DNA of 64,000 bases from Flaccisagitta enflata (taxonomy: Eukaryota). The stretch is from positions 5,332,001 through 5,396,000 of the forward strand of contig OZ231126.1 of NCBI GenBank assembly GCA_965153355.1, read 5' to 3'. Below are positions 36,112-60,026 of the stretch, in pieces. Below the pieces are notes generated by a model. The model was not told where the DNA came from and did no database searches. It saw nothing but the letters and a program-made list of their open reading frames with translations. The position numbers and the translations under genes are program-made. Position 1 is the first letter of the stretch; each line of letters opens with the position of its first letter.

Positions 36112-37974
36112 TAAAGGCCGAGATTAAACGCGAGTTGATAACAACCAATCTACTTAACGAGAGACAAGCCCATTTTTATATCAAAATGAGAATAGGAAAA
36201 AAAAAGAATGACTCAAAATGAAAAATAAAACTTTCAAAACGAGAGATAAGAAAGAAACACATAAACCGAAACTTGGAGTAAAAAAGGACCATTTTACAGC
36301 CTAAGATCTAAAGACAAAGATAAGAAAAAAAAACACAGTTTCAAACGTCTTTCCTCTTTCCTCCACCAGCGTGGAATAGATGGAGTAAAAAAGCGACATT
36401 TTTCTTATGTCCAGATCTTCTTTTGTGTCATCCTCAGAAAAAATTAATTTCTACCACCGGCTAACTCTTACGTGCTCCTCATCAATCAATTCGTTCAAAT
36501 TCTTCTACAACATTCATCGTCAAATAAAATTCCTTCATCTTACTTTCCATTTTTACTTCTTTACTTTCTTAGCGTCTTCCTCCGACCAACCCCCACGGAT
36601 TTTGGAATTTTCCAACCATTACTCCATTTCCCTCCCGCTCCATCTTCCCTTCCGAGTTCTGCCATCCTTAATCTTCTCTTTCAGCAGCTCTTTCTGCAGC
36701 TTTTAGCTCTTCATAGACATAAAAAAAAACAAAAAAGGTTTAAACATCGATATCAAAAGATTGTCTGAAACCATCAGAAACTGAGAAAAAGAGAACTTGT
36801 AATGCTGAAAAACAAGATTTGGGCCGTTTGCTAGACATACCAGGCCCAAAACAGGTCAAAATTGGCAGAAAAGCACTGTTTTAACTTTATACAATTTGAA
36901 GGTCAAAGTGAGGAGAATTGGAAAAGGCTTTATTTTGGTGGTTTTCCCAAATTTTAGGTTCTATGAATGGTATTAAAGATGTTGCTAACTTGTTTACATG
37001 TTGGCATGCTTACTTAGTCAAAAAATAAACGAACAAGCCAAAATATACTGGTTTGAAAATATCAAGATTCTCTTATAAGAAGGGAGACAATAAGGTGCAT
37101 CTGAAAAATAAATGGTATTTTGAGCATTTTCAAAGCTGTGTCACAATTGTAAAAATGCAACCATTGATGATTTTGTGCATCCTCCTTGAACATTGTACTT
37201 TGACAACAAAATTGAATTTTGGGCTGGTGCCCTTCAAACCAATTTCACCCTTTTGCATGCTTTTCATACTCCGTCACGGATTTTGAAACACGACAGCCTT
37301 CAAAATCCCGCCATTAATATATCCAAAAAATAGATTTTCCCAGAGATTATCCTGAACTTGGGTTATATCATTAGATGTTACTAAAGGTTGGGCTAAAAAT
37401 CCCGTCCACCGATTTGATTTTTCACGATATTGCCTACAAGCCAACTCAGCTACTTTTTGGGCAAATTTGCGCAAATATCATATATTCTTCAGTGGGTTTT
37501 GCGGTCAAATTCTACAATCTAAGTCCAAAAAAACTATTTGATCACTAATCAGCACTTCAGCTTAGGAGCCAACTCAAAAATTGCTGCTCAGCTCCGAGAA
37601 CCAGAACAGATCTTATGTTTTCCTAGTTCTAACTGATCAGCGTGAGAGGTCGCGAGGGGTGTTGTCTCCTGTCTAAATTTTCTTAAAAATCTTTTCGTAA
37701 TATTAATATTTAGTAATGATAATTTCCACCTCGCGTGGCCCCGGTCCTCGCTAATTTTCTGCTATTATTGTCCTCTTGACCGTGCAGCGGGCTTTCAGTA
37801 GTCTGTTTTTATGATATTGGCGTTAACCTTGCGGTCAGTTGGTTTTCCCCTCGCTGTGGTTGCGTAACATTTCACTCGTCTTACGGCCGTTTCCTCATCA
37901 CCTTTACTTCGTTTCCTCATCACCTTTACTTCGTTACGTCCCCAGGTCCGATCGCCGCCGTGCCATTTTCCACT

Positions 37975-38143
37975 ATGGGAGACGACAATAAAGAAGTAGA
38001 CATCTTTCGAGACACTCTCTTACGGTACGCGGGATACGCAAATGAAGTGGGTGAAGCGTTTAGAGCCCTCACACCGAAGGTTTTCGTTCACGGGACATAC
38101 GTTGTCGCCAGCGCTTATGTTCTCGCCGATGCAACTGACAAAG
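37975..38143 (+). CDS. MTFP1: Mitochondrial fission process protein 1, exon 1 (MGDDNKEVDIFRDTLLRYAGYANEVGEAFR...)
   Basis: DxxRDTxxRYxGYANEVGEAFR signature; g|gtaagt donor. Confidence 0.95.
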
Positions 38144-38586
38144 GTAAGTTGATGATACGTAGGCTACAAAAGTGAATTGGCTGCAGGATCCTTTGCCCGA
38201 CAACACCATAAATTCATAGGGAAATCTACAAACATTGAAAGTGTGGCTTATACGTACAGCTAAACCCCGCTCCAACGGATTTCAGGGACCAATAAATATC
38301 ATTTGTTATAAGCAATTTCTATTATAGGAAACATATGAAATTAAAGAAAACTAGTTGAAAGGATCAAGAATTAGTATCTGTTATAAGTGGAATTACGTTA
38401 AAAGCGGGTATGTTAGAGCGGGGTTCCACTGTATACATTGACTCCACTTTTGCTGCTACCGGATGCGATTATAGGTGTTTGTCATTATGAGCTCGTTCTT
38501 GTCAACCTGCTAATATCGAGTATCGTGTACTTGTTAATGTCTAACGAATCTATTACGCAGTTGTCACCAAACTTTATCTTTCGCAG

Positions 38587-38750: not shown

Positions 38751-39198
38751 GTCAGGTTTTAATAGCTAATAGCTAAGTACTATGAGATAGGTACAGATTA
38801 GATGTATGTACCAGAGGGTTCTGGAGTAGCCAAAATCTGTAGCTCTTCACTTTCATTCTTTCTCTTTCGTGCTTTCCTACTTTCTTTCTCTATCGTTCTT
38901 TCTTTCTCTTTCGTTCTTTCTCTTTCCCTCTTATGAAATGTTCCAAGTCAAAAATGTTGTTAAAGAGAAAAATTTATGAACGAACCGCACCAACGGTGAC
39001 GACATGCAGGCTTTGTCACCTTTCTAATCGCGTATGTTTCACAATACTTTGCACTAATGTGCGGCTCACAACAATTTAACATTGTTGATATGATGGCAGC
39101 ACATTTGATGAGCATAACAATTCATTCATTCAATCATTCTTTCTCTCTCTCTTTCTTTCTCTCCCTCTTTCTTTCTCTTTCTCTCCTTCTCTTTCTCT

Positions 39199-39456
<258 letters not shown>

Positions 39457-39457
39457 G

Positions 39458-39601
39458 GTAATTCCCAAGGTTCCATTGACAACACGTAAATGGATCACTA
39501 CGTTCATCGGCTTGGGCATGATTCCTCTCATCATTCATCCCATCGACAACGGCGTTCATTACGTCATGGATCAGTCCATTCGTAAAGTTTATCCCAATTG
39601 A
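39458..39601 (+). CDS. MTFP1: MTFP1 exon 3 ([47 protein letters not shown])
   Basis: (CT)n-ccag acceptor; RKW...GL..IP.IIHPID motif; TGA; total 158 aa. Confidence 0.93.
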
Positions 39602-40701
39602 CGTGTGACTGAAATCGTATGTGGAGATTAACGAACCTTTATACTCATTGTAATTGAGTGCTTCAAAACTTTTAAGTTCAGGAGCAACATGACTCATGTG
39701 AATTACCCTTGTGTACTTCACTATTTTTTAAAGGCCCACGGGTTGGCTTGAAATGAGAACCGGGATTGTTAGGTCATTAAGAGATGAGAGCGATCGACGC
39801 GGCCCCAATGGCTCTTCACACGTGCGTGCAAGATTGCATGCTCAGCGCTTATCTCTACACGTCTAAGAACGCAACATGCATTTATCATGCGACGATACTA
39901 ATTGATGAACACTACTTTCTCCCACTCATTACTAAGCCAATAACGGATTACACATTATTTCTACCCCGCGTATTACGGCGAATCTCTCAACTACATTAAG
40001 ACTTTTTCTCCACACATTACGAGCCTTATTATCCACATTCACTGGAGATCCCCTGGATAAACACCAGTTTCCTAGTCATTATCTTAAACTTATGTAACCA
40101 TTTACTCATCGATCTATCTACGTGTGAGAACGCGAGTGTTAAACGGATGGATGTGAACTGAATTTTGCTAATTTCTATCGATTGCTGTCTCGTAGATTTA
40201 AAGTGTGCCGAAATTCTGGATGTGTCGATGATTTTAATATTTTTTTCAATCGCACTTTTCTCCAGGCTTTGTTGTTATCTTTCAAGAATGTATATTCTCC
40301 CGAGCTTGTTAATTGTTTGCCTCCCTCTGTCGTTGATTTTATCACTATTTATTTGATGATTGCTGACTAACGCAGAAATATCAAGCAAGTAGCTAGAATC
40401 ATTAACGGCTTTAAGAATAATTTTATTGATAATCGATACGGGGAATTGAAAAGTAAAAATCCATCACCGGGGAGTAAAAAATATCCGGAAAAAACTGCTC
40501 ATAAAAAAAAACACAAAACATAACAGCAACCAAATTAGTAAATAAACTTGAACGAATAAGTAACGAAAAGAACGCAACAAAGACTGTAAGACATAGCATC
40601 CAGACTTTGATCCAGTTACCGTCCAGAGGGATTTGATACAGGACCCATTGCGGAGAAGTTTATCTCTTGGACTTTGCGGTGCTTCACTGCTGCGATATAG
40701 G

Positions 40702-40844
40702 ATGGCGTCTGCCGACGTGATTTGCGACTTATGTCGCGATCCCATCGTAATTTACGCGACCGGCAGCTGCGATCATTCCATCTGTCACACCTGCGCCACC
40801 AGAATGAGGGTCCTTTGCAAACAAAACTACTGCTCCATTTGCAG
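40702..40844 (+). CDS. ZNF598: ZNF598/Hel2-like E3 ligase, exon 1 with C3HC4 RING (CDLC...CDHSICHTCATRMRVLCKQNYCSIC)
   Basis: ATG 40702; RING spacing and RMRVLC motif typical of ZNF598; first ag|gtatgt donor of a repeated set. Confidence 0.9.
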
Positions 40845-41410
40845 GTATGTGCCACCAGAATGAGGGTCCCATGCAAACAAAATCACTGCCCCATTTGCAG
40901 GTATGTGCCACCAGAATGAGGGTCCTACGCAAACAAAACTACTGCTCCGTTTGCAGGTATGTGCCACTAGAATGAGGGTCCTATGCAAACAAAACCACTG
41001 CCCTATTTGCAGGTATGTGCCACTAGAATGAGGGTCGTATGCAAACAAAATTACTGCTCTATTTGCAGGTATGTGCCACCAGAATGAGGGTCCTATGCAA
41101 ACAAATCCACTGCCTCATTTGCAGGTATGTGCCACCAGAATGAGGGTCCTATGCAAACAAAATTACTGCTCGATATGCAGGTATGTGTCACCAGAATGAG
41201 GGTCCTATGCAAACAAAGTTACTGCTCCATTTGCAGGTATGTGCCACCAGAATGAGGGTCTTATGCAAACAAAACCACTGCCCCATTAACAGATATGTGC
41301 CAACAGAATGAGGATCCTATGCAAACAAAACCACTGCCCTATTTGCAGGTATGTGCTACCAGAATGAGGGTCCTATGCAAACAAAATCACTGCTCCATTT
41401 GCAGGTATGT
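40795..41410 (+). repeat. 56-bp tandem repeat x11 spanning the ZNF598 exon 1 donor
   Basis: donor positions 40845 + 56n up to 41405 (41293 mutated to AT). Confidence 0.95.
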
Positions 41411-41704
41411 CCCTGGGGACCGGGGAAGGCTCTGGAATCATTCCATCGCTCCACTCGCGGTTAGAAAGCCCAGGAGCGAAGTTTTGGTCCGCATGTTGAT
41501 AGCCTGTTTTGCCATTCACGATTCGTTGAATTCTGACATTCATTCTAATTTGATGATGTTGTAGTGTTGATGTGTACGGTGTTGCCGATCTTCCTCGTCT
41601 GGGGTAGGTTCGTGGCTGAGCTTCATGACACCTTAATTCCGGTAAATTTTTGTCAAAAATTCTTGTTTAAGTGAAAGCTGACAATTGTTATCTCCTGTCC
41701 TAAG

Positions 41705-41830
41705 GACTGAGCTCTCCGAGATGGTTTTCGGTTGGGAGAGTCGGAAGTTTTCTTGGTACTCGGCCAAATCGTCGACTTTGTTGGTCGATAAGCTGCACCC
41801 GGGATTTAAATTCGAAGACCGAGACGTCAG
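41705..41830 (+). CDS. ZNF598: ZNF598 exon 2 (RTELSEMVFG...GFKFEDRDV)
   Basis: taag acceptor, ag|gtcagt donor, phase 2-2; continues CR-xEL after the RING. Confidence 0.85.
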
Positions 41831-41936
41831 GTCAGTGGTGAGACTTGGAAGTATAATTAGTTCCAATTACGTGGTGAAAATGAGACGCGCTGTAACCGCA
41901 TAATGAAATACACTTTGGAAAGGCATAGGTTCCTCA

Positions 41937-42567
41937 CACTACCAGCCAAAACACGGAATGAGTTAAGGTAGAATGATCGTCTCTCACTTTGATCGTTTTT
42001 GGGTCATTGTAGTGTGTGCAATATAAATCTAAAGGAAACTAAATCACTTTTGGGGCGGTTTTTGAAATATATGCAAAAATGGTGTAAATTTAGTACATTT
42101 TTCATCATAACTCTTCGTGGTGATGTTTTCTGGTATTTTTGACTGCAGATTCGGATTCAGCGAGTGCTTTGCGGTTTGTTTGATATGTCACACTGTATAG
42201 TTTTGAAAAAGAAATAAAAAGTTAATTTTTTCATCATATTGCTATAAAATACATTTATTTTTAATGATTTTATAAAAAAATAAGTTTTTACTTCTATTTC
42301 AAAAGTACATAGTGTGACATATCAAACGAACCGCAAGCCACCGACTGAGTCCAAATCTGCGGTCAAAAATACTAAAATAAATCATCACAAAGAGTTATGA
42401 TGAAAAATGTACTAAATTTGTACTATTTTTGTATATATTTCAAAAAGCGCCCCAAAAATGATTTAGTTCTTTCCAGATTGTATTATACATACCGCAAGGA
42501 CTGAAAACCTATCAGAGTTGTAGACGATCATTTCAAGTCAACTCATTCCGTGTTCTGGCGGACAGTG
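41937..42567. mobile_element. Palindromic MITE, CAC termini, 4-bp TSD CTCA (Chapaev/CMC-like)
   Basis: ctca|cactaccagccaaaacacggaatgagtt ... aactcattccgtgttctggcggacagtg|ctca. Confidence 0.75.
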
Positions 42568-43462
42568 CTCACTGGATTGCTAGATCTATGAGTTAGCCTA
42601 TCGATTTTTAGATGCGTCCTCGTATCTCTAAATGAGGCTTTGTCCGTCTGTTAGTCAGTCCGTGGCGTGTTTTTTTTTTTTTGGTAAAAAATGCTAAGTT
42701 TTGGTAATTTTGCTTTAGACATTGAAATGTTCTTTTGTCCTTTTGGGTTGACGTACCCCTCTGAAAACTTGGGAATAAGTTGGTACACTTGATGACGATT
42801 GATTCCCATAGTGAGCGCCAATAATTTTAATATTTTCTTAGAACTAGCCTTTTTCAAAAATCAGGCCCTAATTCTGAAACTCAATTTTATGGTTTTTTGG
42901 CCAAAAATATAAAAAAAACATGGAATTTTTTCAATTTCTTTTGTTTTTAGAGTAAATTGGGGTAAAATAGATGTTTAAAACCAATATCAGACTCCTAGCT
43001 AAAAAAAAACAAAATTTTACCCCAAAATTGAAACATAGCCCTTTTTTTGAAAATAGGCCTAGACTTTAAACAACAATATCTCCGCTTCTACTGAACCGAT
43101 TTTGCTGAAATTTTGCATGCAAGTAGAAAAAAGGCATATTTTTCTTCACCTAAAATTTTATGGTGATCCGTCAATTCGTTTGGCGTCAGTGCAACTTCAA
43201 AGTTATTTTTTTGAGAAAAACGCGTTTTTTTATGGGGTACACTAAAAAATCAGACGTGTACCCCATCTAGTCTTCTTCAGCACGAAAAACTGACCCTGTA
43301 TGCAAATTTTCAGGCTTTCTTCCAAAGATGCCAAGATCTATTCTTTTATTCCTTTTAGAGACTGGACTACTAATATAGTTACCTAAAAGCAGTTACCGCC
43401 TACCATTCTATTTGCATTGGTAATTCCCTGACATACTTTTATACCGTGCCTTTTTTATTCAG

Positions 43463-43633
43463 ACGGCGTTTCCAAGCGTTACTAGAGCATCAATGTCATT
43501 TATGCGACGCGGATCCTTGTCAGACATTCGCTCTCCTAAAAACTCATTACACTCGGAATCATTCCTTGTTCTTCTGCGATCTCTGCTTGAAACATCTCGA
43601 CTTGTTCTCTCACGAACGGAGAGTGTATGACCG
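43463..43633 (+). CDS. ZNF598: ZNF598 exon 3 (LLEHQCHLC...HSLFFCDLCLKHLDLFSHERRVYD)
   Basis: ttcag acceptor, cg|gttagt donor; C2H2 finger and FxxERxxY motif. Confidence 0.92.
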
Positions 43634-43859
43634 GTTAGTTATGAATATGAGCGACAAGTCGTTCGGCGCCTAAAGTAAGCCAGTGACTTTGTTGCATTTG
43701 ATTGGTTGTTGGTGTGATGTCATGCGATGAGAATTGTACGACCGCAAAGCTCAGTGAATGGAATATTGATTTGATGAGTGAATGGTAGAAGAGGAGATTG
43801 CTTGAGAAGGAACGTAAGGCCGCTTGTTCAATTCCCTGCTATACAAAACTTTACTCCAG

Positions 43860-44062
43860 CAAAGAGTTGGCTCGTCATCGTCGTGAGGGTGACACGGAAG
43901 ATCGATCCCATCGAGGGCATCCACTCTGCGAGTTTTGCGACGAGCGATATTTCGACAACGACGAACTCATGAAGCATTTGAGAACGGAACATTACTTTTG
44001 CCACTTCTGCGAACACGATGGCGTCAATAACCAATACTACGCCACTTACTCTGATCTCAAAG
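43860..44062 (+). CDS. ZNF598: ZNF598 exon 4 (KELARHRREGD...HRGHPLCEFCDERYFDNDELMKHLRTEHYFCHFC...)
   Basis: ctccag acceptor, g|gtgaat donor; HRGHPLC.FC..RY.DNDEL..HLR..HYFCHFC signature. Confidence 0.95.
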
Positions 44063-44687
44063 GTGAATTTGTTTTGGTCGACTGTATTCGCATTGGCAGT
44101 TTAACAACGTCAGGTTTTGAATGTGGTTTTAAAGGAAACAGGCAGGGGGGGGGGGAGAATAGAATCTAAGGATTTGTAAATGGGGAAGAAAATCAAAGGG
44201 TAGAAAACCGAAAACAGAAAAATATAGAAGATTACTTTAATGTATTGTTTAGTCACCCTAACCAAAAACTGCAATATAGGGGGTATATGGGAAAGAAAAT
44301 CAAGGGCAGTTCGACACCGCGGGGAAGAAAATCAAACGACCAGGGGGGACGGGAAAGAAATCAAAGATCGTGCAACACTCCTGAAAGGAAAATCAGTTGG
44401 GTGGGCGATAGAGCCAAGTGCGATTTTATCGGTGTTGATATTAGACGTTGCGTCTTGCTCGTCAAACTTATATTTCTGTACTCTCGTCACTGTTTCCGTC
44501 ATTTTTCCTCAGCCTCAGTTAAGTAAGTTTACTCTGTACCTTCCCTTCATCAACTCGTCATTCTCTGTGCGAGCAGGGCCTACATTAAATGGTGGGGTGG
44601 GTTAGAAAGTGACATATAACATCTTTCATTCCATCCGAATCTGTAGTTTGTAATCATTGCCGTTTAAATGTTTTCTTTTCTTGTTAG

Positions 44688-44874
44688 ATCACTTTAAATC
44701 GAGTCATTTCCTGTGTGAGGAGGGCGAATGTGCCTCTGCGCAGTTCACCAACGCGTTTCGAAGTGAGATCGACTTGAAAGCTCATCTCGGTTCCGCGCAC
44801 AAGGACAACTACAAACACAAAGGAAAACTCAAGCGTGATCTTCAACTGGATCTGGATTTCGGACCTCAATCAAG
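44688..44874 (+). CDS. ZNF598: ZNF598 exon 5 (DHFKSSHFLCEEGEC...FTNAFRSEIDLKAH...)
   Basis: gttag acceptor, ag|gtttgc donor; HFLCEEG.C...F..AFR.EIDLKAH signature. Confidence 0.93.
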
Positions 44875-46732
44875 GTTTGCACGTTTGACAAACGTTTGTC
44901 TACGTATTTTTTCATCATTTTTAGTTGCGGACACGCGACTCTGAGGCTATGTGGCTATGTCTGTCAGTTGGTCTGTCGGTCCGTTTGTCCATAAACACTA
45001 GTCAAAAAGTGGGAAAGTGTTTTAGAACCTTTAGTGCATGTATCTGTGTTGGGAAGGAGGTTGGGCGAGGCGTTTTGTGTGGATGGGGGTTGGTGGCCCC
45101 TGCCCACCCGTCAGCAACGATATTGTGACCCCACGTCACTTATTCAGTGGTACCTTTCTGCCTCGCTACATGTCCGCCATTGTGTCGAATTTTCTTCCGC
45201 CCTCGAATAGAACTTATTCTTTGTTTACTATCCTCTCAAGCCAAATGAAATGATATTTAGTCGCGTGCTACGTGACTCTATACCCAGCTTTGTCCGTCGG
45301 TTGGTCGGTCGGTCACCTTTTTACTTTTTTTGCGTTTAAGAGCTTTTTGATCACACCGCTCCTGCCCAAATGCCCCCAGTGACTTTCTCCACTGCCCCCG
45401 TCACCCCTGCACGCGACTTAATCCGGCTATGTTTGGAATTCGGAGCGCACAGGTCTAGCCTCGTTTTCTAACATTCTGTTGCACTCTCAAATCTACTATC
45501 TAGCTTTCTTTGACCTTCAATAAAACTTCATTGTAAGATTAAGCTAGCCAGCTATTTCTGTAGCTTTCGGAAACAAGAGCCAAGTCAAGTCTAGTTCCCC
45601 GTAAATTGTATTGACAGATCACTTTCGCAGGATTCCATTAACAAGTCACGAACTGGTGCGTTTGTGTATCGTTTCTTAGCAACGAATGTTTCATATGACA
45701 TGGATGCATAATTGCATAAGATCAATGTAACTGTAACCGCTGTCCGTAGATCGTTTTCCCTATTTCATATTCCGGGCCTTATCATGCTACCAAAAATTCT
45801 TATCCATGAACGCGAAATTGACGCTCGGATGGAGAAAAATAATTCAGAACCAAGATTTTTAAGGTTCTTCTTATACCCTGCAAGAAACAGCAATCCAGTA
45901 CATCTTCTTGCCACTTGCCTCGCTCTTTTCGCAATCGAAAATGGTCTTCTCCTTTCCGGTGCACGTGTACTCGTACTTGGAGACTATGGACTTTATTGCC
46001 GGGAAGTCCCTGGGAAGCCACGAAATCCCTGGGAAGCCCAACGTACGACAAACCACTTTCGCCACTTTGGCCTGTTGTAGGCTACGAATATGCGCCAACT
46101 TAGAGAAATTGAAGGAGAGAAAAAAGTTGTCAGAAATTTTAATGTCCCTCGACCCTAGTATATCTGCTACGAAATTTAAGAAAACATCATTATTTTTCTT
46201 AGACTTTGCTTAATTTATCACAGAGTAAGACCACAGTACTTTTTTTTTGCGATGAAATGGTTATAATAAAGAGAATATGAAAAAATGCTGAGAAAACCTC
46301 ATTTTGACCAAAGTAGGAGAACCGTGTGGTCATGTTCGCCCATCTGCCTTATAGATTTAGCTTTGCTGATTTCAAATCTGTTTTTAAAAATCGTCTGCGA
46401 TTTGGCGAAAAATGGCGAGAGACAAAACAGTCAACCCTTTTCATTAGCGGTAGGAGAATAAATACTGTCATGGAATTGACGCGTAGAGCTGACGCAAACA
46501 ATACATGCATCCTGTTCGCGTTTCTACGCAATTTCATTTATAGTCGCGTGCACGCGACTCTACACCCCGCTTTGTCCATCGGTCGGTCGGTTGGTTGGTC
46601 ACACTTTACTTTTTTTATAAATTTTATTTCTTTAGGGCATTTTAGGTCATATAAGAGTCATTCTAAGTTATTCTAAGTCATTCTAAATGTAAGTCTCGCA
46701 CGCGACTTAAAGGTGTTGGCCTTGTTGTTTTT

Positions 46733-46958
46733 AGTCGCGGACACGCGACTCTACACCTTGCCGTGCTGGTTGGTCAGTCTATCGGTCGGTCGGTCCGTCC
46801 GTCCGTCCGTCCATCCGTCCGTCCGTCTGTCCGTCCGTCTATCCGTCCGTCCGTCCGTCCGTCCTTCCGTCCGTCACATTTCTGATTTCCAAGCAGTTTT
46901 TGCGGTAACTGCTCCTGCCCAACCGTCCGCGACTGGATTGCCGTGTATCCGGCCTTGT
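46733..46958 (+). mobile_element. DINE-1/HINE-like element, representative copy (others at ~14095, 29606, 33395, 44922, 45257, 51078, 51292, 54684, 61039, 62911, 63125)
   Basis: T-run, subTIR agtcgcggac...gtccgcgact, (GTCC)n, 3' gccgtgtatccggc hairpin, T-run. Confidence 0.7.
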
Positions 46959-47500
46959 TTTTTACAGTGGCTGAAGTTCATTCTTGCCAAGACCTTTCCA
47001 ACTTTCACATTGTCATATGGTGGAGTAAGCTAGGTGCAACAGAAGTTGCGCGTGAACTGTTAATGAATACTGATCAATGCCTTCAGTCTTTGAAAGAAAA
47101 TGCCCTAAGAGGTGCAAGAAATAAACATCAAAAATAACGATCAATCATAAAACCATTGAAAAAAAATTTACTAATTTTAAAGATGGGATGACTATCAAAT
47201 TATTTAGGGTACATCGTCTCCGGCAAAAGTATATATCGCTGCACAAGAATAGAGGTGCAATGCTTGACAGTTTCCTCTCGCAGAAGTTCGAGTATCTAGC
47301 AGAATCGGCGCCAGTGATATGGCCAATGATTCCTGGCTCATGAGTAATAGACGCTTGGGTGTGTCAGTATGAAAAAGTATTTTTGATCAGGTCATCAATA
47401 AAATGGAGTATAAACAAAAAAATTGTAAGATTTTGGTGTTTTTTTTTTTCAAATTTCATGTAACTTTTTTTTTCTTAGCGCAAGAAAAGATTGTAAAAAA

Positions 47501-48905
47501 TATATATTAGGGCCAACGGTTTTTGCATCAAATCAATTGAACACCCCAGCCTGCAGCTTTTTTAAACAGACTATGTCTATACTGTTGAAAACTACTTATA
47601 TGACTTTTTTCTCCGTGAGTAAAGTGGTGGAGATAACATAATTTTGTTGTAAAAAGGTAATTTTGTCAAAATTAGGCCACTTAGCTTAGGAAATCAAACC
47701 TAAAATCCATGAGATTATAAAACTAGAGCTCAAGATCTCACCATTGGTGCAATCCTCATGTTTCTATCATTTTTCGTTTAGATTTGAGAGCATTTCAAAG
47801 ATAAAATGGTAACTGAAATTGGCTTCAATTTCAGTGGCAATTTTGACATTTTCCACAAATTTCAATATTAGCTTTGGATGGAATATCTGCATAAATTGCG
47901 ATCAAATTGAAGATTTTCCTGTTCTAGCTGACGGTCAAAACATTTTAATCAATATTCTCAAAATTTTAGAGACTTTAGAAGCAGGTGCAAAGTTTTTTTT
48001 AATTGTCATTTTTGATGAAAATAGGCCACTTCTAATTTATAAATACTTAAAATTGCATGAGCAAAATGAAGTACTGAGTTAATCCAGTGAAACTAGCCAG
48101 TGTCAGTATGTTTTTGCATTTAGATTTTATAGAACTTCAAATATCTAAGGGTATGTCAAAATAACAATTTTTGGGTATTTTAATCTTTGAAGTTCTATAA
48201 AATCTAAATGCAAAAACATATTGACACGCCAATTGCACCACTGGTTAGCTCCGGAGCAGTACTTCATTTTGCTCATGGATTTTAAGTCTTTTTATGAATT
48301 AGAAGTGGCCTAATTCTTCATCCAAAATTGACCAATTTGCAAAAAAATCGATTTTTTTTGCACCTGCTTCTACAGTCTCTAAAATTTTAGGGGGGGAATA
48401 TTGATCAAAATTTTTTTGACCATCAGCTAGAACAGGAAAAACTCTTCAATTTGATCACCAATTTTATGCAGATTGGTCCATCCAAATCCGCGAAATATTG
48501 AAATTTGTGAAAAATGTCAAAATTGCCACTGAAATTGAAGCCACAATTTTCCCTTCAAACCCTTTCGTCTTTGAAATGCTCTCAAATCTAAACGAAAAAT
48601 GATAGAAACATGCGGATTGCACCACTAGTGAGATCTTGAGCTCTAGTTTTAAAATCTCATGGATTTTAGGTTTGATTTTTAAGGCTAAGTGGCCCAATTT
48701 GGCGGCCAAAATGACCTAAATTTGACATTTTTACCACAACCACCATCAAGTTATGATCAAAATATCAAATCTGGCACCTCTAAATCATGGAGAAAAGTCA
48801 TATAGCGAGTAGTTTTCAACAATATAGACATAGTTTGTTTAAAAAAGCTGCAGGCTGGGGTGTTCAATTGATTTGATGCAAAAACCGTTGGCCCTAATAT
48901 ATATA
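47501..48905. mobile_element. 1.4-kb palindromic MITE in a ZNF598 intron
   Basis: tatatattagggccaacggtttttgcatcaaatc ... gatttgatgcaaaaaccgttggccctaatatata; complementary arms to the centre near 48170. Confidence 0.8.
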
Positions 48906-50118
48906 CTTCCAGCATCTGCACCTATTTTTTTTTGAAAAGATAAGATTTATTACTTGTACAGAAAAGATTTGTTATTGTCACTTTTTACAACTTTATTGAT
49001 AAATGAACTACTTTTACCTTTTTGCAACTAGAATCAACACCAAGATATTCATGCATGTAAATTTGATTAACTTCATGAGCAATGATAGTGAAAAAAATCA
49101 TCAATACAGTAAGATACAAATTAGTGGCTAAAAAGAGGTTTTAAAAAAATGAAATATGAATGAAATTTGACAAAATAAAAACGTTAACCATCTTTGAATT
49201 TAATACTTTATACTATCTGATACTGATGGTCTCATCAAAAAACCTTTTGCATATTGACACACCTGAAGGAGACGCGAACGTCTTACGGGAGCAAAACATT
49301 TTTTCCTATTTTACACATTTGGCGAGGCAAAATAAAAAATGATGTGAATTTACTTTTTAGTCGTGTGCTCTGTAATCACAATCTTCACTTTTCAGTCAGG
49401 TGGTCAGACAGTCAGTTACTGCCCCTGCCCATTGGCACATGATATTCTTTGCTGTTTATTCAGCCTTAATGCAAAGTTTGAATGCGCCCTTATAATGGAT
49501 TCAATTAAGTCTTGGTCTGTGTGTCTGTCTCTGTCTGTCTCTGCCTGTCTGCCTGTCTCTGTCTGTTTCTCTCTGTTTCTGTCTGTTTCTGCCTCTCTCT
49601 CTGTCTCGCTCTGTCTCACTCTGTGTCTCTTTCTCTCTCTCTTTGATGAAGCAAGTTATGTGTAGTATCAAAAGACGTTTTGAATTTGGCACAAAATGAG
49701 GCCATTACACACATATTTCCACTCTCTAGCAATCTGACTGGTGCCAGCGTGTCAGCCTGTATCAAAATTAGTCACCTGGCAAGGTTTTTCTGTGCGCGCG
49801 CACATATTAACGCATTTTAAAACTCGGTATAGCCCAATTTTTACAAGGAAAAAAAAGTGCCAGAAGATGACTGGCGGATTCCACTCACATTCAGCTACAT
49901 AGGGGCCAGGGGCCATGAAAATTATCCAAAGTTTCATTTATGGTTCTAATTATAAAAATACATGTAATTACGAGTCAATCCATATGCGCAAACGGATTTT
50001 TGACCATTTAAGCCGTTTTCGATTGAGTACCCTACCTGTTGAGATTAATTTCACAATGATTACCTAAGTAATATATACGAGGCTTTTTGTCTGCGAGCGA
50101 CACACACATGTACACACC

Positions 50119-50190
<72 letters not shown>

Positions 50191-50250
50191 ACACACACAC
50201 ACACACACACCGCACACACACCACACCGCACACACACACCACACAACACA

Positions 50251-50339
<89 letters not shown>

Positions 50340-52714
50340 GGTAAACGGTAAGCAATCTGTATCAATCAATATCAGTTGGAAAGAACGACAATGCTATCAA
50401 TATCAAAAGGATATATCACACGCAGAAGATCAGTCCATGTCCATCAGAAATCTTCCTCTTATACACAAACAAACAAACAAACAAACAAACAAACAAACAA
50501 ACACTAACTCACTTGTCCATCCTTTAGAACCGGAGTGAGTTTTTGCCACTCGCCATCTTGAAAAATTTCCACTCGACCGGCATCTTTTCCCAAACGCCAC
50601 CAGCGATTTCCTAATGGAACTAAGCGAACTCCCAATTCCACATCCGCGATTTGTGATTGCAGTGTTTTTCTGGAAGTATAGGAGGAGTGTGGCAATCAAC
50701 AAAGATGAAGGCGAAGTTGCAATGGGCAAAAAGAAAGAATAGGTTTTCATTCGTTTTGTAGGAGGGATAGGCATTTGAAAGCACACTTTTTAATCACAGG
50801 AAAAACGGCTTAAAATGTAGTATAAAGAGTAAGCTTACAAAGCCCGTCAGTATTATGATTACATTACATTACTGCGACGAACTTACCGCGATTCTTCGAT
50901 GGATTTCTGCAATTGCAACATTTGCAGTGTTTGATAGTACTTCGACGAGATGCGGGCAGCTAGCTCACCTGAGGTGGTGGGGAAAAAATATTGTCACCGA
51001 CTTGATCGCTACGCAGCGTAGCGCCATAACGCCTTTTTTTTTGCGCTCGGTTTCATGGATTGATCATTACACTTTTTTAGTCGTGGACTAGCGACTCTAT
51101 AAGAGGCTTTGTCCGTCCGTTGGTCGGTTGGTTGGTCCGTGGTGATCGAGTTGAAAAGTGGGAAAACACGCATTTCCACCCCTGCCCACCCGTCCGCGAC
51201 TGGTATTGGCCGTGTATCCGGCCTTGTTTTTTTTTAAGAGACCAGTTTATAAGAGACATGAGCCTGAGATTTGCCGAAATTTTAAGAAAACAAGTGACGC
51301 GGGGTCACAACATCGTTGCGGACGGGTGGGCAGGGGCATCCCACCCCACTTCTCACCAAAAGTTCCCCCCTCACATGCACATAAAGCATCTAAAACGCTC
51401 ATTTCCTCACTTTTCGACTCGTGTCCACAGACGGACGGACGGACGGACGGACGGACGGACGGACAAAGCCTCTTATAGAGTTGCGTGTCCGCAACTAAAA
51501 ATAAGAGAGTGCCCAGGCTGAGATTCAGCTTCGGCCATTTTTGAAAACAATTTTATTTAAGTTTCTTATCTAAAAAATGAATTTGATTCAAATTTTTCAG
51601 AAATATAGGTTGTTTATCTTTAAAAATAACTTCTTTTCTTAGTTTGCCTATGAAATCAGGTATTATATTAAAGAAAATATAACAATTATCAAGTTTAAGA
51701 TAAAACTGCTCTAAATAAGGTATTTTTAAACAATCTAAACATTTATGAACATTGAACAAATTAAGAACACTTAAAGAGAAATTCAGGCTGAAAACAGCCG
51801 AAAATTAAAGAACACCCAGGCCGAGTTCAAAAAAGCTGTCTCTAATATAAAAAAGTGTATTCATTACATTTACCGCCGCCGGCCTTATGCTTAAATGGCG
51901 AACATCATAAGTAACAAGTATTTCAATACACCGAGTGCGTTTGAGTCTTCATTATGTTCCCTACCATCTTTTGAATTCTGCGGCTTCGCTTCAACGTAGA
52001 TGCCCATCAGAACGAGGATCAAACCTATTAGGAATTTCATCTTCTATTAGAAAAAGAAGGAAAGGAATAGAACAAAAAACGAAGAAAAACGAAGAAAAAA
52101 GACTAAGAAAAACGAAGAAAAAAGACTAAGAAAAAAGTTTCCCGAATCTCGGTTTCGCAGCTAATCTGTGTAAGCTGTAGATGTAGTGACGAAGGGCTAT
52201 GTTTTAGTTTACAATGGGTGGAACGAGAAGCTAAAAAAATTCGCTTGGACGTAGTTCAAGGGCGTGTCATCGTCGTGTTAAAGAAAACTCAGTAAAAGGA
52301 CTCAATGTGAAGGTGTGTTTTAATGGTTGTAAGCGCGGTTACATTGGCCTGCTCAGTCGCTCGCTACTAGCATTCGCTAGAAATGATTTTACGCAGAATC
52401 GGGACCTTAAGTTACTGACTGACTAGTCGAGCCTTTCAGACATCGCTTTCAACCACATGTCAAGCGACTGAAATCATCCATTTGTATTTATATTACAATC
52501 CAATGGACCCGTTTCAAACGGTATTCCGCCTATAACAGATGCTGATTCTTTATTTCTTCTGCTTGTTTTCTTTTATTTCTTATATTAGCTTTAATAAGAT
52601 TCAAGTTTATAACAAATAACATTTGGTGGTCACTTCAAATCCGTTGGAGTGGCATTGAACTGTATTTTCTATTCACGTCTATTTATCTTTACTTGCATTC
52701 GTTTTACTGAATAG

Positions 52715-52885
52715 GGGATTGCCTGGCCGTGGACGCGGGCGGGAACGAGATCGGGGTGAAGAGGCGCCGCGCGGTCGAGGTCGAGGGCGAGACGACCGAG
52801 ACAGTCCTAGGACAGTCGGCAAATTAGACAGGAATACGCTAGACGATGGAGGAGGAGGAGGCGGAGGAGGAGAGACGCCTAACAG
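52715..52885 (+). CDS. ZNF598: ZNF598 exon 6, RG-rich low-complexity segment
   Basis: aatag acceptor, ag|gtcggt donor, phase 2-2 fits neighbours. Confidence 0.75.
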
Positions 52886-53183
52886 GTCGGTGACTGAGGT
52901 GTCGTCTTTTCTCTCTCTTGATTCAAAACTAGCGCTCTATCTCAGTAACACGTCCCTCCCTTTCCCACCCACCTCCCACTCCTTTTAAACCAACCATTTT
53001 ACATTGTGATTGTTCCTCATCTCTCATCTCTTTGATTTTATGCTTGCCCTTTTACAGAAGCTGTTCGTTTGGTCTTATCCGTCTGTCAATATATTCATGT
53101 GTATGCACATGTGGACGATGCTGTCCCCTGCGCAAATGAAATCTTCTGATATTTTCCGTTTCTTGTGCTTCCTTTCCTTTCAG

Positions 53184-53303
53184 AAACAGTCCGCTTCCTG
53201 AAACGACTTTTCGACTTGATGAAGTGGCCGAGTTTCCGACGCTTGACAATACCAAGCCCATTCCTCAGTCAACGCCGGCTGTTTCCAAATCAAAACCAGT
53301 CCG
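53184..53303 (+). CDS. ZNF598: ZNF598 exon 7 (...DEVAEFPTLDNTKP...)
   Basis: strong tttcag acceptor, cg|gtatga donor, phase 2-2; FPxL motif as repeated in ZNF598 proteins. Confidence 0.75.
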
Positions 53304-53339
53304 GTATGATGCATTGACGCTTCTTCTTTGACAAGTGTA

Positions 53340-54175
53340 CCGTCACACGGGGCTAATCGGGACAGCAGGGCCTAATCGGGACACCAATCTAATTAATGGT
53401 TGTATATGGGATATTTCAAACCCGGTCAACTTTTTTTTTTTTTATTCATCACTTTCACCATATTCAGTTTATATATGGTGACTTATGGCGGTTTATATTG
53501 TTTAATAAGTTTTTTTAAAGGTTTTAAACTTAAAATATAAACAAGGTGGAAAAAAGCAAAAATCGACATAGCTAAAAGATTATTTCTTTAACTCAACACT
53601 GGATAAAGTGCTCAATGTGATCTTTTTGTATCTTCAACTTAAAGAAGTCAGTGACTCTGAGGACGATTCATGAGGGGTTTTCGAGAAAACTTGTTTGTTT
53701 ACAAACTTAATTTAGGTAAATAATCAATTTTTCTAAAAACACGGGGCTAATTGGGACACCAAATTAAGCTATACTAAGGGTCATAAAATCAATAAATATT
53801 CATGGGATGCCATTAATTAAGTCTAATTAGGGACATTCATGCCATAATTACAATAAAAGTCTGACCGGGTTAAGAGTTTTCGATTTTTTCATGTTAGATC
53901 TTGAAAAACCGGTAAAATATGGCTTGAGCGGGGCTAATCGGGACAACACAGTAAAGTAATTGCGTCCCGATTAGCCCCACTATGGGGCAAATAGGGACAG
54001 TGCACTTTCTTTTAAATCCTCACCAAACGAGTCAGTAATGGATTCGGGTTCTTGGCGTGCAATAAGCCTCTCAGCAGTGGTAATTAAGGGTGGAGGATGG
54101 TGGGATGTATCTTTGGAAATTTCAATGATACAGAGCAGAATTTCCAAAAAGTGTCCCGATTAGCCCCGTGTGACT
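53340..54175. mobile_element. MITE with TIR gtcacacggggctaatcgggaca and internal repeats of the same motif
   Basis: inverted termini; ggggctaatcgggaca-like motif recurs at ~53370, 53743, 53930, 53965 (inverted). Confidence 0.7.
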
Positions 54176-55109
54176 ATTTTACTATCTTAACTATGAAAAG
54201 TGGAACAATATCCCTCACTATACTCATACTGAAATAAGTGGAAGAGAGCTATTTCGTAACTGACCACGCCGGCGCCAAAAGTTTTGATTAGGAGCAAATC
54301 TTCCATAGACGTTTCTGTATAAATATTGACACGATCGTAGGTTAGACCTTGCCGGCTTTTGCTTACATGTTTACTGCGTGTTTTCTTTCTAAGCACATCT
54401 TCATGCGGTCACCAGTGGGGGGGGGACTTTTCAGCAGGGAGGTCATAGGTGTCATTAGCTTATGTGATTCTACAAACTGCCTCCATTTACTATTATAAAC
54501 CAAGTTTCATGACCTTCTGACAAGTCCCTGATAGCGGCGCCACCCCCCCCCCCCCCCATTTTTTAAGGGCCAAATGGTTTACAAAAAATTGCTCCCATTG
54601 AATCCTATGATGATTGAAGGGGGGGGGGGGTGGCGGCCCTATCAGGAATATGTCAGAAGGTCATGAAACTTGGTATATCTTTTTAGTCGCGTACTACGCG
54701 ACTCTAAACCCCGTTTTGTCGGTCCGTCAGTCTGTCACACTTTGTTTTTTTTTGGGTTTTTGCGGTTTTTGGCCTGGTTTTGCTCCTGCCCAAATGATCA
54801 AGTGACCTCAAATACGGCCCCTGCCCCCCCCCCCCGCACGCGACTGGGGTAGCCGTGTATCTGGCCTTGTTATTATAATAAATGGAGGTATTTTGTAGAA
54901 TTACATAGGTTTCTGAGACCTAAGACTTTGTTACCCCCACCCTGCGTTACAGCCCTTCTTCCCTCCTGTGTTCGTCCCCACTATGAGCCAGATCAGCGCA
55001 GCTAAAGAAAATTCCCATGTTTACCCAGCCTCTTACCACCCAGCAACCACCCCAAGAGGCTCAAACCGCCTTTTTATATCCCCCACCTGCCTATCTTTCT
55101 CCAATGCAG

Positions 55110-55257
55110 GGAGGAAGAAGAAACTTACATCGTGTTCTCTGAGAGCGTTGATCCTAAAACGATGAAGCCCAAAGAAGGATCAGCGGCAAAAGTCTCCTCT
55201 GGACTGAAAGCGTTTAGGACGGTTTGGACCAACGACAGCGCAATCGACAATGATCAG
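55110..55257 (+). CDS. ZNF598: ZNF598 exon 8 (EEEETYIVFSESVDPK...VWTNDSAIDNDQ)
   Basis: atgcag acceptor, cag|gtaaat donor, phase 2-0; open frame. Confidence 0.72.
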
Positions 55258-56671
55258 GTAAATGACAATGAACTAAGTCAAGCTGAGAGTCGCGTTCAGG
55301 AGGGTATGGACCAACGGCAGCGCAATCAACAATGATCAGGTAAATGACAATGAATTAAGTCGAGCTGAGAGTCGCGCTAAGGATGGTATGGACCAACGAC
55401 AGCGCAATTGACAGTGATCAGGTCAATGATGAACTAAATCGAGCAGAGAGTCACGTTCAGGACTGTTTAGACCAACGACAGCGCAATCGACAATGATCTG
55501 GTCAATGATGATGAGCTAAGTCAAGCTGAGAGTCGCGTTCAGGAAGGTTTAGACCAACGACAGCGCGATCGACAATGATCAGGTAAATGACAATGAACCA
55601 AGTCGAGCTGAGAGTCGCGTTCAGGATGGTATGGACCAACGACAGCGCAATCGACAATGATCAGGTCAATGATGAACTAAGTCGAGCAGAGAGTCACGTT
55701 CAGGACTGTTTAGACCAACGACAGCGCAATTGACAATGATCTGGTCAATGATGATGAACTAAGTCAAGCTGAGAGTCGCGTTCAGGAAGGTTTGGACTGG
55801 CAACAGTGCAATCGACAATGATCAGGTAAATGACAATGAACTAAGTCGAGCTGAGAGTCGCGTTCAGGATGGTATGGACCAACGACAGCGCAATCGACAA
55901 TGATCAGGTCAATGATGAACTAAGTCTAGCAGAGAGTCGCATTCAGGAAGGTTTAGACCAACGACAGCGCAATCGACAATGATCAGGTAAATGACAATGA
56001 ACTAAGTCGAGCTGAGAGTCGCGTTCAGGATGGTATGGACCAACGACAGCGCAATCGACAATGATCAGGTCAATGATGAACTAAGTCGAGCAGAGAGTCA
56101 CGTTCAGGACTGTTTAGACCAACGACAGCGCAATTGACAATGATCTGGTCAATGATGATGAACTAAGTCAATCTGAGAGTCGCGTTCAGGAAGGTTTGGA
56201 CCGGCAACAGTGCAATCGACAATGATCAGGTAAATGACAATGAACTAAGTCGAGCTGAGAGTCGCGTTCAGGATGGTATGGACCAACAACAGCGCAATCG
56301 ACAATGATCAGGTCAATGATGAACTAAGTCGAGCAGAGAGTCACGTTCAGGATGGTTTGGACCAACGACAGCGCAATCGACAATGATCTGGTCAATGATG
56401 ATGAACTAAGTCAAGCTGAGAGTCGCGTTCAGGAAGGTTTGGACCGGCAACAGTGCAATCGACAATGATCAGGTAAATGACAATGAACTAAGTCGAGCTG
56501 AGAGTCGCGTTCAGGACAGTTTGGACCAACAATAGCGCAATTGACAATGATCAGGAAAATGACGATGAACTAAGTCGAGCTGAGAGTCGCGTTCAGGACG
56601 GTTTTGACCAACGACAGCGCAATCGATAATGATCAGGTAAATGACGATGAACTAAGTCGAGCTGAGGTCGC
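55210..56671 (+). repeat. 79/82-bp tandem repeat x18 spanning the ZNF598 exon 8 donor, with 243-bp higher-order unit
   Basis: 18 gatc[a/t]g|g[t/a] junction copies from 55257 to 56636. Confidence 0.95.
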
Positions 56672-56904
56672 ATGTGAGTGTAGAAGTGAGCTATAGCTAC
56701 CAAAAGAACTAAGCGACTGCCGACCAACCGCTTAAAGAAAAGCAAAATGTTTTTCTGTCAGAACCTAGAGGGTATGTCCGTCTGTCCGTCCGTCGTTCGG
56801 CCAGTTCAACATGCATGTTCTTATTAATGGTCGGAGTTGATTCATTCACAAGGAGATATGTCTTTCTAATTTTCCACGACTCTTTTATCTCATCTAAATT
56901 TTAG

Positions 56905-57075
56905 GCGGCCTTTCCTACGTTGGGTGAGAGTTTACAACCGAAGAAAAAGCCCGAGCCACCTCCAAAAGAAACGCCCACATCCAAACAGCAAAACTCAGGC
57001 TGGACTCTGGTCGACGACGACGATGACGACCATCCCTGGTCTCAACCACAACAACCACAACCACAACCCAAAAAC
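56905..57075 (+). CDS. ZNF598: ZNF598 exon 9 (AAFPTLGESLQPKKKPEPPP...QPQPKN); ends at gtgagt donor, or reads on to TAA at 57093
   Basis: ttttag acceptor in phase 0; second FPTL motif; c|gtgagt donor. Confidence 0.7.
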
Positions 57076-57821
57076 GTGAGTACAAGATTGTAACCCCATC
57101 CAAAAAACGATCTAACGTGATCATAATCATAACCAGAGGGCGTGAGTGAATGGCCATCTCTGACCGCGTCGATAATCTGAAAGCGTGTTTTCATTCACAC
57201 TTCATGAATGGGCACGTTATGTTTAAAATGAAAATGCACAAGCCACAAATCATTCGCTATCTGCTTGTCTGTCTCTCTCTGCGTCTAGCTTTGTTTCTCT
57301 ATGTTAGTCGCTCTACCCGTTTTTCTGTCTGTGTCTCTCTCAGAAAGTTTGTTTGTTTGTCTGACTCTGTGTATGAGTGCGAGCGGTTGTCTGTCTGTTT
57401 CTATTTTTGTATGACTCTGTCTCCCGTCGTTCTCAAAAAACGGATATACATTTTGAAATTTGGAAATCGTCCACAAGTTGGTGCCCTCACGACCACAACC
57501 ACCGCTATCTTGAACCGCAAGCTGACTTGCATCCTGACTCATGCGCAGAAAAATGAAATGGAGAATGCGTATGGTAGATAGGTTGTACAAAAAGCGATAA
57601 CAGGCAGTTATAACATATCGGTAATATCGGCAAAATAAGCATGTACCAGTTAAAGCTTTCACACTTAATACAAGGGTTTTGGTTTTTTGTAATTGAAGCG
57701 TGCCTATTGTTAGAGATATTATTATTTCCCTAAATTTTTAAGGAGTATCTTTTTGTCGTTTTGTCGTTGTGGTAATTGTTTTTGTTTTAAGGAGACTGTT
57801 GTTGTTCTTGTTGACTAGTTT

Positions 57822-58229
57822 CTAAGAATCTCGCGCCTCTCCGTTCTCTGATCGTATATGTGCATCGTCTATGGCGATCTTCGGCGGTGGGAGTTGGGTT
57901 GTTTCGTCTCCATCTATCTTCCCGTTCACTGGTTGGTCATCGCCATCTTTAGGCCTCACATGCCCATTTTCCTTCACCACCATCTCCCCGTCATCGCCCT
58001 CTGTCGGTACAAAATGTCCATTCTTGGCGCTCTCTTTCGGCCCCACGTGTCCATTCTGTTCGCCCTCTGTCGATACCAAGTGTCCATTTTCCTTCACCTC
58101 GACATGCCTCTCATTGACATCATCTTTCCGCTCCGCATCTCCGTTTTCTCCCTCTCCGTCCTCGTGGCCCGTGGAGCCCTCGGCTGCCGTACTTTCCGCT
58201 TTGTCCAAGTGGTGTTGATACTTGTACAC
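57822..58229 (-). CDS. TRIM2/3-like last exon (VYKY + ~130-aa acidic tail), TAG stop
   Basis: aacag acceptor, phase 0; completes HCFK-VYKY; 135-aa open frame. Confidence 0.85.
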   Translation of the reverse strand: MYKYQHHLDKAESTAAEGSTGHEDGEGENGDAERKDDVNERHVEVKENGHLVSTEGEQNGHVGPKESAKNGHFVPTEGDDGEMVVKENGHVRPKDGDDQPVNGKIDGDETTQLPPPKIAIDDAHIRSENGEARDS

Positions 58230-58350
58230 CTGTTTTATAAATTGTCAATTGATAAAAGCCGGTTTAACATCTTTCTTGACAAACTTTTTCTTCCATTCTG
58301 ACTTGATTGATTAGCAAGGATTTGGCAGCGATTAATTCTTTTTGCCTTAC

Positions 58351-58413
58351 CTTGAAGCAATGATTTCCGCTGTCTGCCACTACGATATTGCCGTTAGATG
58401 TCACCGCGACTCC
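58351..58413 (-). CDS. TRIM2/3-like exon (GVAVTSNGNIVVADSGNHCFK)
   Basis: ttccag acceptor, aag|gtaagg donor; VVADSGNHCFK last NHL repeat. Confidence 0.92.
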
Positions 58414-58613
58414 CTGGAAAGAATTGCGAAATTCCAGATTTACCCACTTTTTATGTTTCATAGAAAAGAAAAGAAAAGAGAAAAGACTTGTATGTCACGC
58501 ATGATAAAATTGATGAAGATCGCACTTAGACATGAAAAGAATTGGTGTTGTTGGTGAAATGGTCCGATAAAACAGAATGAATAATTGGATATTCACACAG
58601 CAAAAACGTCTAC

Positions 58614-58682
58614 CTGCGGTCCATATAAGGGGTCCAATGATGTGTTCAGCCGGAACAAGTGTTTGCCGCCTTTTGAAAAAAC
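58614..58682 (-). CDS. TRIM2/3-like exon (VFSKGGKHLFRLNTSLDPLYGPQ)
   Basis: ttag acceptor, cag|gtagac donor; NTSxDPLYGPQ is a TRIM2/3 signature. Confidence 0.9.
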
Positions 58683-59160
58683 CTAACCGGATAGATAGAA
58701 TCAATCTATTCAATAAGCATATTATTCCTGAGCAATGTTTAGTTGTAAACTGATTCATCACATTTGCATTTGAAGGAATGAAAATGTTTTTAGATGCGTC
58801 CTCGCATCTCTATAAGAGGGTCTGTCCGTCCGTCCGTCCGTCCGTCCGTCCGTCCGTCCGTCGGTCGGTCCGTCGGTCGGTCGGTCCGTCCGTTACGCTT
58901 TCTTGGAAATCGCGTTTTTCGGCTATTTTAGGCCTCGGTGAGATCCTCTACTGAATCAAATGATCGACAAACATATTTTGAGAGCCTCCTTTACTACTCA
59001 GTCGTTCATCAGTCAGTTCGTCCATCTGTCAGTTCGTCCATCTGTCTCTATTCACGTCACATGTTCAATACACGCAGAGACACAGTCCGGACGCATCTTT
59101 GCCCGGTCGGGCTTGTTCTTTTTCATCACGTATGTCTTTGAAATGATCAAGTGACTGAAC

Positions 59161-59308
59161 CTGTACTGAGTCTGCGAGCCAATCGGCGACTACGATGCGA
59201 TCTTGTTGGTCGACGGCAACGCCGGTTGGATACGCCAGAATGCCCGGCACGTACCCTCCCAACTTGGAAGTGAATGACATGCCCGAACAGAGCCCATCGC
59301 TGGACCGC
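59161..59308 (-). CDS. TRIM2/3-like exon (RSSDG...GILAYPTGVAVDQQDRIVVADWLADSVQ)
   Basis: cgccag acceptor, cag|gttcag donor; PTGVAVD...I.VADW NHL repeat. Confidence 0.85.
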
Positions 59309-60026
59309 CTGGCGAAGGGTGGTGACAAAGGGTGGTATCGAAACAGCGTAAGAAGGGTGAGCGGCGCAACTGTTTTTGTGCCCCTGCCGACTCGAATTAC
59401 TGCTCCTGCCTCCTCCCCATTCGCATTTTTGTGGCTGCCCACCCGCAAGCGAATACTCATTGTTCCGGCATCCGGCCTCGGTATACCGTGTGCGAGGAAT
59501 CGGTGCTTAAGGATTTGAAATTTATTTTTTTGATTTTACCTGTGACAATTTACATTTCTAGAATTGATTTTAAAAAAAAAAACGCCTTTGATCTTCCCGC
59601 ATGGAGAGAGAGAAGGTTCCCCCGCTTTGTTTTAAAACACACATAAAACCAGTTATTTTTGCTTTTACCGGCAGTAGCTACAGTTATGCCTTTTTTATAT
59701 CGTTAATGAGGGAAAGAATGTTTTTGCCCTTTATATTCTCTATTGCAACCCATGCCGTCGCGACGGTTGCGTTTGCCTATTTTAGTCACTGGGAACATGT
59801 TAGCGGGTGGGATTTACGATATGAAAAGTGGAAAAATCCCTCACTATACCCAAACTAAAATATATGAAAGAGTTTTTGTGCACCTTCATTTACTGGTTTT
59901 CCATTAAATGTTTGAGCATTACCCAAAACAAAACTCAAACCAAAAGGAGTCAAAAGCCAATCAATTTCTCCCACCTTGCCGAGGCTAACAAGCGTACCCA
60001 TGTCTTAATTCTTGTCCTATTGTTAC

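Follow-up and report, generated by a model that had tools for sequence, protein, structure and literature searches.

A minisatellite of 11 units across the first coding exon-intron boundary of ZNF598 in a marine bilaterian, with another array across a later donor of this gene

The window, meaning the whole stretch of 64,000 nt analysed here, carries on its plus strand a gene of a marine bilaterian which, judging from protein homology, is its ZNF598 orthologue. Its exon 1 matches the Pfam family PF25447 RING_ZNF598 (E=1.8e-13), C2H2 matches fall on later exons, and the 47 residues of exon 1 share 81% identity with the N-terminal end of P0001, a protein of 1366 residues that was the one relative found when longer proteins were searched with exon 1. 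P0001 reads across the exon 1/exon 2 boundary in the same way, CSICR being followed by TDLEEM. It has 202 protein relatives at E<=0.001; of the 120 listed, those with a name are mostly ZNF598 or ZNF598-like proteins, the best of them coming from molluscs and a brachiopod with 51-54% identity over residues 1-290, a distance at which the host is placed among bilaterians and no closer. The stretch 40600-45000 turns up in marine metagenomes and metatranscriptomes. Two tandem arrays, called array 1 and array 2 below, lie across donors of this gene, and the features needed to follow them are:

40702..40844, plus strand: coding part of ZNF598 exon 1, from the ATG to the first donor, ending in phase 2 (AG|G = Arg); from Pfam, P0001 and the X8 RNA contig
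40795..41410, plus strand: array 1, 11 units of 56 nt; from Tandem Repeats Finder (TRF), the unit table and core matches
40845..41704, plus strand: intron 1, 860 nt, GT..AG, holding units 2-11 together with 294 nt that are unique; from the joint in the X8 RNA contig
40861..40863, plus strand: TGA that comes into frame once the first donor is passed; from ORF 40597..40863
41243..41298, plus strand: unit 9 of array 1, the sole copy without GT (CAG|ATATGT), with TTAACAG in place of TTTGCAG; from the unit table
41705..41830, plus strand: ZNF598 exon 2, acceptor cctaag|G, donor CAG|GTCAGT; from a piece of the X8 contig and tblastn of P0001
~43463-43634, ~43846-44070, ~44690-44887 and ~53170-53262, plus strand: further ZNF598 exons; from tblastn of P0001
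near 52700-52900, plus strand: ZNF598 exon placed by eye, with ORF 52659..52988 read against P0001 and no confirming alignment
55102..55257, plus strand: later ZNF598 exon ending in GATCAG|GTAAAT, phase 0; from tblastn of P0001 residues 376-434 and ORF 55006..55335
55210..56671, plus strand: array 2, 18 units of 79-83 nt that form a higher-order repeat of 243 nt; from TRF and the unit table
55258..56904, plus strand: intron holding array 2, acceptor tttag|GCGGCC at 56904|56905; from protein homology, not RNA
56905..57076, plus strand: next ZNF598 exon (AAFPTLGES...), donor AAC|GTGAGT; from ORF 56905..57093, which matches P0001 after residue 434

Beyond 57076 no ZNF598 exon was mapped, although P0001 has about 880 more residues. 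A compound microsatellite, (TC)n(TA)79(CT)n, occupies 39138-39454, some 1.2 kb before the start codon of ZNF598. A scan of metagenomes with an alignment of exon 1 gave 115 pattern matches, of which a single locus (L001) survived tblastn; with 41% identity over 34 residues and no tandem repeat it was judged not to be a ZNF598 exon and was dropped. The same kind of scan with the pattern of the array 1 unit-unit junction gave 0 matches, and a protein search for short ORFs carrying exon 1 with its read-through tail, which could have brought out further alleles or species, whether they have the array or lack it, gave no candidate.

Array 1 is built of head-to-tail units, 11 in the window record at 40795-41410, for which Tandem Repeats Finder returned a period of 56, 11.0 copies, 88% matches, 0 indels and a score of 966. 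The 27-nt core of the unit has 11 matches at <=3 mismatches, none of them outside the array, and 0 matches in 100 shuffles. The exon-intron junction (40844) falls inside the first monomer: unit 1 is the real end of exon 1 plus GTATGT, and units 2-11 are intronic copies. A preliminary description of this DNA had defined the unit as the last 50 nt of exon 1 plus GTATGT, repeated 11 times with GT retained at the CAG|GT junction of ten copies, and the limits of exon 1 (40702-40844), the TRF result and the unit table all agree with it. CAG|GTATGT is found in 10/11 units, AG being kept in 11/11 and GT in 10/11, with unit 9 as the exception. Two of its details need correction. The unit codes for residues 32-47 of the 47 in exon 1, with the last cysteine pair and one more cysteine, which makes up about one third of the exon 1 share in the RING and not "half" of the ZNF598 RING, and the microhomology of tgcgccacc/tgtgccacc through which the units were said to be joined comes down, before the unit, to two common letters (TG). 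Cut in register, each unit differs from the consensus at 2-5 positions (38/616 cells overall), and any two units differ from each other at 3-9 positions.

Twenty-four runs were listed for 40600-45000, and four of them (X1, X3, X8 and X24) were compared with 40571-42250. In X1 (DNA of organism A, which may be the source of the window) short contigs cross unit junctions of array 1 at 40898-40979 as well as its 3′ edge at 41358-41444. In X3, an unrelated marine metagenome, contigs run over unit junctions at 40854-40920, where 2 letters differ, and at 41189-41249, where 1 letter does. Since unit-unit junctions are found only in arrays, these contigs place array 1 in wild DNA, and it is not an assembly artefact of the window record alone. 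It could still be argued that mis-assembly of a single exon-intron junction produced the array or its number of copies, given that the X1 and X3 contigs are pieces of 60-200 nt, none of which spans the whole array, and that X1 depth is zero on unit 9 (41243-41298) and on 41467-41914. With units that can be told apart at 3 to 9 positions, and with contigs from both sources over unit-unit junctions and from X1 over the 3′ edge, we regard this as scarcely credible; as no contig spans the array, the number of 11 copies is that of the window. Just past the array, at 41414, about half of the X1 depth (92/194) has one extra G, presumably an allelic indel. In ZNF598 intron 2, the segment 41915-42250 has a summed contig depth of 2-4.7 x 10^5 in X1 and of about 10^4 in X3, with numerous loose contig ends at 41934-41937, and is an interspersed repeat of very high copy number.

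The splicing of intron 1 was seen in one metatranscriptome contig of X8 (1131 nt, depth 6.67), which covers 40698-40842, resumes at 41703-41831 and then runs into the letters of exon 3. With the cut moved by +2, its joint 40842>41703 becomes 40844|41705, which skips 860 nt with GT..AG ends, and the X8 depth on units 2-11 is zero. Array 1 is thus removed from the mRNA, as had been supposed, and the donor used in the mature RNA is the most upstream one, as read from a single contig of a kind in which rare forms are invisible. The contig is 97-98% identical to the window, 3-4 letters differing in each exon, and it is an environmental contig with no sign that its source carried array 1. Rare forms are lost on assembly, and any transcript with a premature stop would be under-represented as well. 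The raw RNA run X24 (organism A, ~6/100 of the run read) had 0 reads on 40571-42250 and is thus no test.

What would follow if the first donor were passed can be read from the frame. Read-through of this donor gives ...CSICRYVPPE and then the TGA at 40861-40863, and all 10 downstream positions lead to the identical premature stop after 53 residues. The earlier expectation that the downstream donors are unproductive, 56 not being a multiple of 3, is therefore upheld, the same TGA being met every time. Upon this the preliminary description had built the idea of an NMD-coupled dimmer on a ribosome-quality-control E3. In the form weighed here, downstream-donor use would be tunable and would divert part of the ZNF598 transcripts to nonsense-mediated decay, and the number of units, or the level of a splicing factor, would set the output of ZNF598. 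That each downstream donor runs into the same stop, and that the real donor is matched exactly by nine intact pseudo-donors, would suit such a regulatory decoy. However, no isoform that includes a unit is seen among the contigs (an observation of low power, in the same X8 evidence), P0001 shows only the ordinary protein reading, no paper linking ZNF598 with a minisatellite was found in the literature search, and nothing ties array 1 to regulation. We consider a regulatory decoy quite improbable.

The junctions themselves had been read as a chain of AG|GT ratchet sites, so that the array could leave as its own intron or by recursive splicing. In the form that we weighed, the AG|GT would be dual-specific and re-splicing would remove whole units and restore the same mRNA, so that expansion would be "self-healing" and hence tolerated. 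The retention of AG in every unit and of GT in all but one accords with this, as does the composition of the 18 nt before the unit AG, 67-72% pyrimidine vs 72-78% at three real ZNF598 acceptors, a margin small enough to make use of the AG as an acceptor conceivable. CAG before GT is, however, the ordinary donor consensus, and a duplicated donor looks "acceptor-like" for that reason. No clear branch-point-like motif was found in the unit consensus, which was read by eye and unscored. A single-unit intron of 56 nt would lie far below the introns mapped in ZNF598, among which are those of 860, 1632 and 1647 nt. The only joint seen, 860 nt, is not a multiple of 56, and no joint of 56n nt and no exon-to-site intermediate was seen among the contigs, which drop rare forms and give the comparison low power. 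A sole 40844-41705 junction with no intermediates is also the pattern that the preliminary description had named as the refutation of its own proposal; X8 contains it, which as a result from contigs only is a weak test. Recursive splicing, or removal of the array as an intron of its own, thus finds no support in the sole RNA joint (one contig, likewise a weak test), and we think stepwise removal unlikely.

Nor is a constraint specific to the splice motif visible in array 1. Counted by cells, CAG|GTATGT varies in 1/99 vs 37/517 for the rest (Fisher P=0.02), but the cells are not independent, differences being shared among units; counted by positions, 1/9 of the motif vs 19/47 of the others are variable (hypergeometric P=0.09), and two other 9-nt blocks of the unit (7-15 and 23-31) are equally invariant. 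At the RNA level array 1 is unstructured (z=+1.64, with 20/20 shuffles folding at least as well), and no Rfam family matched in 39500-58000.

Array 2 bears on both of these alternatives. Its unit 1 consists of the last 48 nt of exon 55102..55257 and 34 nt of intron and so spans the donor 55257|55258. Its 18 units carry CAG|GTAAAT (8/18), CAG|GTCAAT (5/18), CTG|GTCAAT (4/18) and CAG|GAAAAT (1/18), so that 10/18 differ from the authentic site, and the 18 nt before its AG are purine-rich, with 44% pyrimidine. Read-through meets a stop at 55333-55335. Judging from the protein alignment, the first donor of array 2 is evidently joined to the exon at 56905, and must serve, because AAFPTLGES continues P0001 right after the aligned block. 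By its sequence, array 2 would be no ratchet, and yet it is tolerated despite 44% pyrimidine and 4 CTG units; lacking a pyrimidine tract and having degraded donors, it indicates that donor-spanning arrays persist here without ratchet features. The decay of its donors, in 10 of the 18 units, also speaks against a regulatory decoy.

The surroundings of both arrays are rich in repeats, with 20 minisatellite arrays of period >=16 covering 8458/64000 bases (13%) of the window. Under a model of uniform placement of duplications in the 16,375-nt ZNF598 span, which has 9 donors if that of the by-eye exon near 52700-52900 is counted, a segment of 56 nt would contain a donor with a probability of 3.1% and one of 82 nt with 4.5%, and both would do so with 0.14%. 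Array 1 prompted the search, and the fair figure is therefore that of the second array alone, about 5%; the presence of two donor-spanning arrays in one gene beyond the expectation of uniform placement is suggestive and no more. Among the 51 ORFs of >=85 aa in 1-40500 compared with Pfam, 2 had matches, and neither adjoins an array. ORFs of other genes upstream of ZNF598 are an adenosine-deaminase (editase) ORF at 14779-15189 (+) (PF02137, E=2.7e-06) and an ORF of the mitochondrial MTP18 family at 37780-38172 (+) (PF10558, E=1.4e-07).

A third array was considered as donor-spanning and not counted, no adjoining exon having been found for it. It lies at 61214-62198 (72-nt unit, 13.8 copies), in an intron of an NHL-repeat gene (58264-63789, minus strand, Pfam PF01436 on three ORFs) that converges on ZNF598, and on the strand of that gene its unit reads ATG|GTAAGA (GGTAAG). 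None of the 9 minus-strand ORFs between the exons 59065-59535 and 63571-63789 has an NHL match, and one of them has a weak PT-repeat match inside the array. Elsewhere in the window, arrays of a 24-nt unit with TTAGGG-like words lie at 8191-8814 and 9284-10146, in opposite orientation and about 470 nt apart, and arrays of a 20/40/60-nt unit at 19878-21845 carry a 656-codon open frame for which Pfam gave no match.

Taken together, our data point to array 1 being a donor-spanning intronic minisatellite of the type known from human F7, whose first donor is used and whose remaining donors leave with the intron, a reading to which we give a probability of roughly 0.7. In a genome prone to repeats, a segment of 56 bp over the exon 1/intron 1 boundary would have been duplicated in tandem and expanded to 11 copies. 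Of these, the first remains the exon end, its donor 40844|40845 being the one spliced to 41705 in the RNA contig, while copies 2-11 would leave with intron 1 and their nine intact donors would be pseudo-sites passed over because of their position and not their sequence. F7 IVS7 supplies the analogy from which a preference for the most upstream, cap-proximal site is proposed here. If a proximal pseudo-site were used now and then, the resulting transcript would carry a premature stop and would presumably be degraded. The array itself is probably a tolerated by-product of repeat expansion without a function of its own, and no effect on the biology of ZNF598 is indicated here. A ratchet is unnecessary in this account, since CAG belongs to the donor consensus, array 2 is purine-rich and the human precedents use the most upstream donor.

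The one thing that stands out is a mild oddity, the presence of two such arrays in one gene, which may point to some bias in how they arise or are retained, left unexplained if they are neutral by-products. A far-reaching version would hold that donor-spanning arrays are over-represented genome-wide, that the spliceosome removes them at any copy number so that they escape selection and lengthen introns at the 5′ end, and that array 1 itself is spliced stepwise at AG|GT; we find this combination rather unlikely. A genome-wide excess of donor-spanning arrays, if true, would bear on intron lengthening and on the tolerance of repeat expansions at gene boundaries.

Among known systems, the recursive-splicing ratchet points of Drosophila Ubx and other genes share with array 1 an acceptor-like AG that abuts a GT which would be regenerated after splicing. 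As described, however, they are single sites in long introns (bioRxiv 10.1101/006163; PMC8605326), whereas array 1 would offer ten sites 56 nt apart in an intron of only 860 nt, a difference that weighs against stepwise removal, and the contigs show no intermediates. The nearest published form of the ratchet idea that we encountered is that of Duan et al. (2024, Genome Biol, PMC10809524), in which AGGT in the tandem repeats of UBC (and also VCX3A) is used both as donor and as acceptor, an observation that favours dual use in array 1 as well. These authors argue that an expansion bearing AGGT does less harm, since splicing is able to remove it (PMC10809524). Like UBC, array 1 has AGGT once per unit, and each unit could in principle be removed or kept. 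The UBC units, however, are coding, have a length of 228 nt that is divisible by three, and were seen to be variably spliced by RT-PCR (PMC10809524), while the unit of array 1 is of 56 nt, a kept unit leads to a stop, and no unit-length intron was observed in the contigs, again with low power.

The closest match is with the minisatellites whose first monomer crosses an exon-intron boundary, an architecture already known from the human genes F7, IFI6 (6-16), CBS, LMNB2 and PDGF according to PMC1557585; our search of the literature on donor-spanning architecture found nothing closer than this F7 paper. The VNTR of F7 intron 7 has a 37-bp unit in 5-9 copies (Borensztajn et al. 2006, PLoS Genet, PMC1557585), and the array of CBS sits in intron 13 (PMC1557585). 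The pseudo-sites of F7 are described there as competent, yet splicing takes none but the most upstream functional one, and in IFI6, with 25 pseudo-sites, the two proximal ones are used too (PMC1557585). Array 1 resembles this type in having an authentic donor followed by identical pseudo-donors, the most upstream being used (here in one RNA contig). It differs in the unusually long exonic share of its monomer, 50/56 nt as against 4/37 in F7, and in its setting, after the first coding exon of ZNF598 in a marine invertebrate-grade bilaterian, with two such arrays in one gene. Array 1 thus adds a natural case outside mammals in which many identical 5′ splice sites compete for one acceptor, and loci of this kind are ready tests of whether the spliceosome's choice of the first among several equal donors depends on position, cap proximity or scanning.
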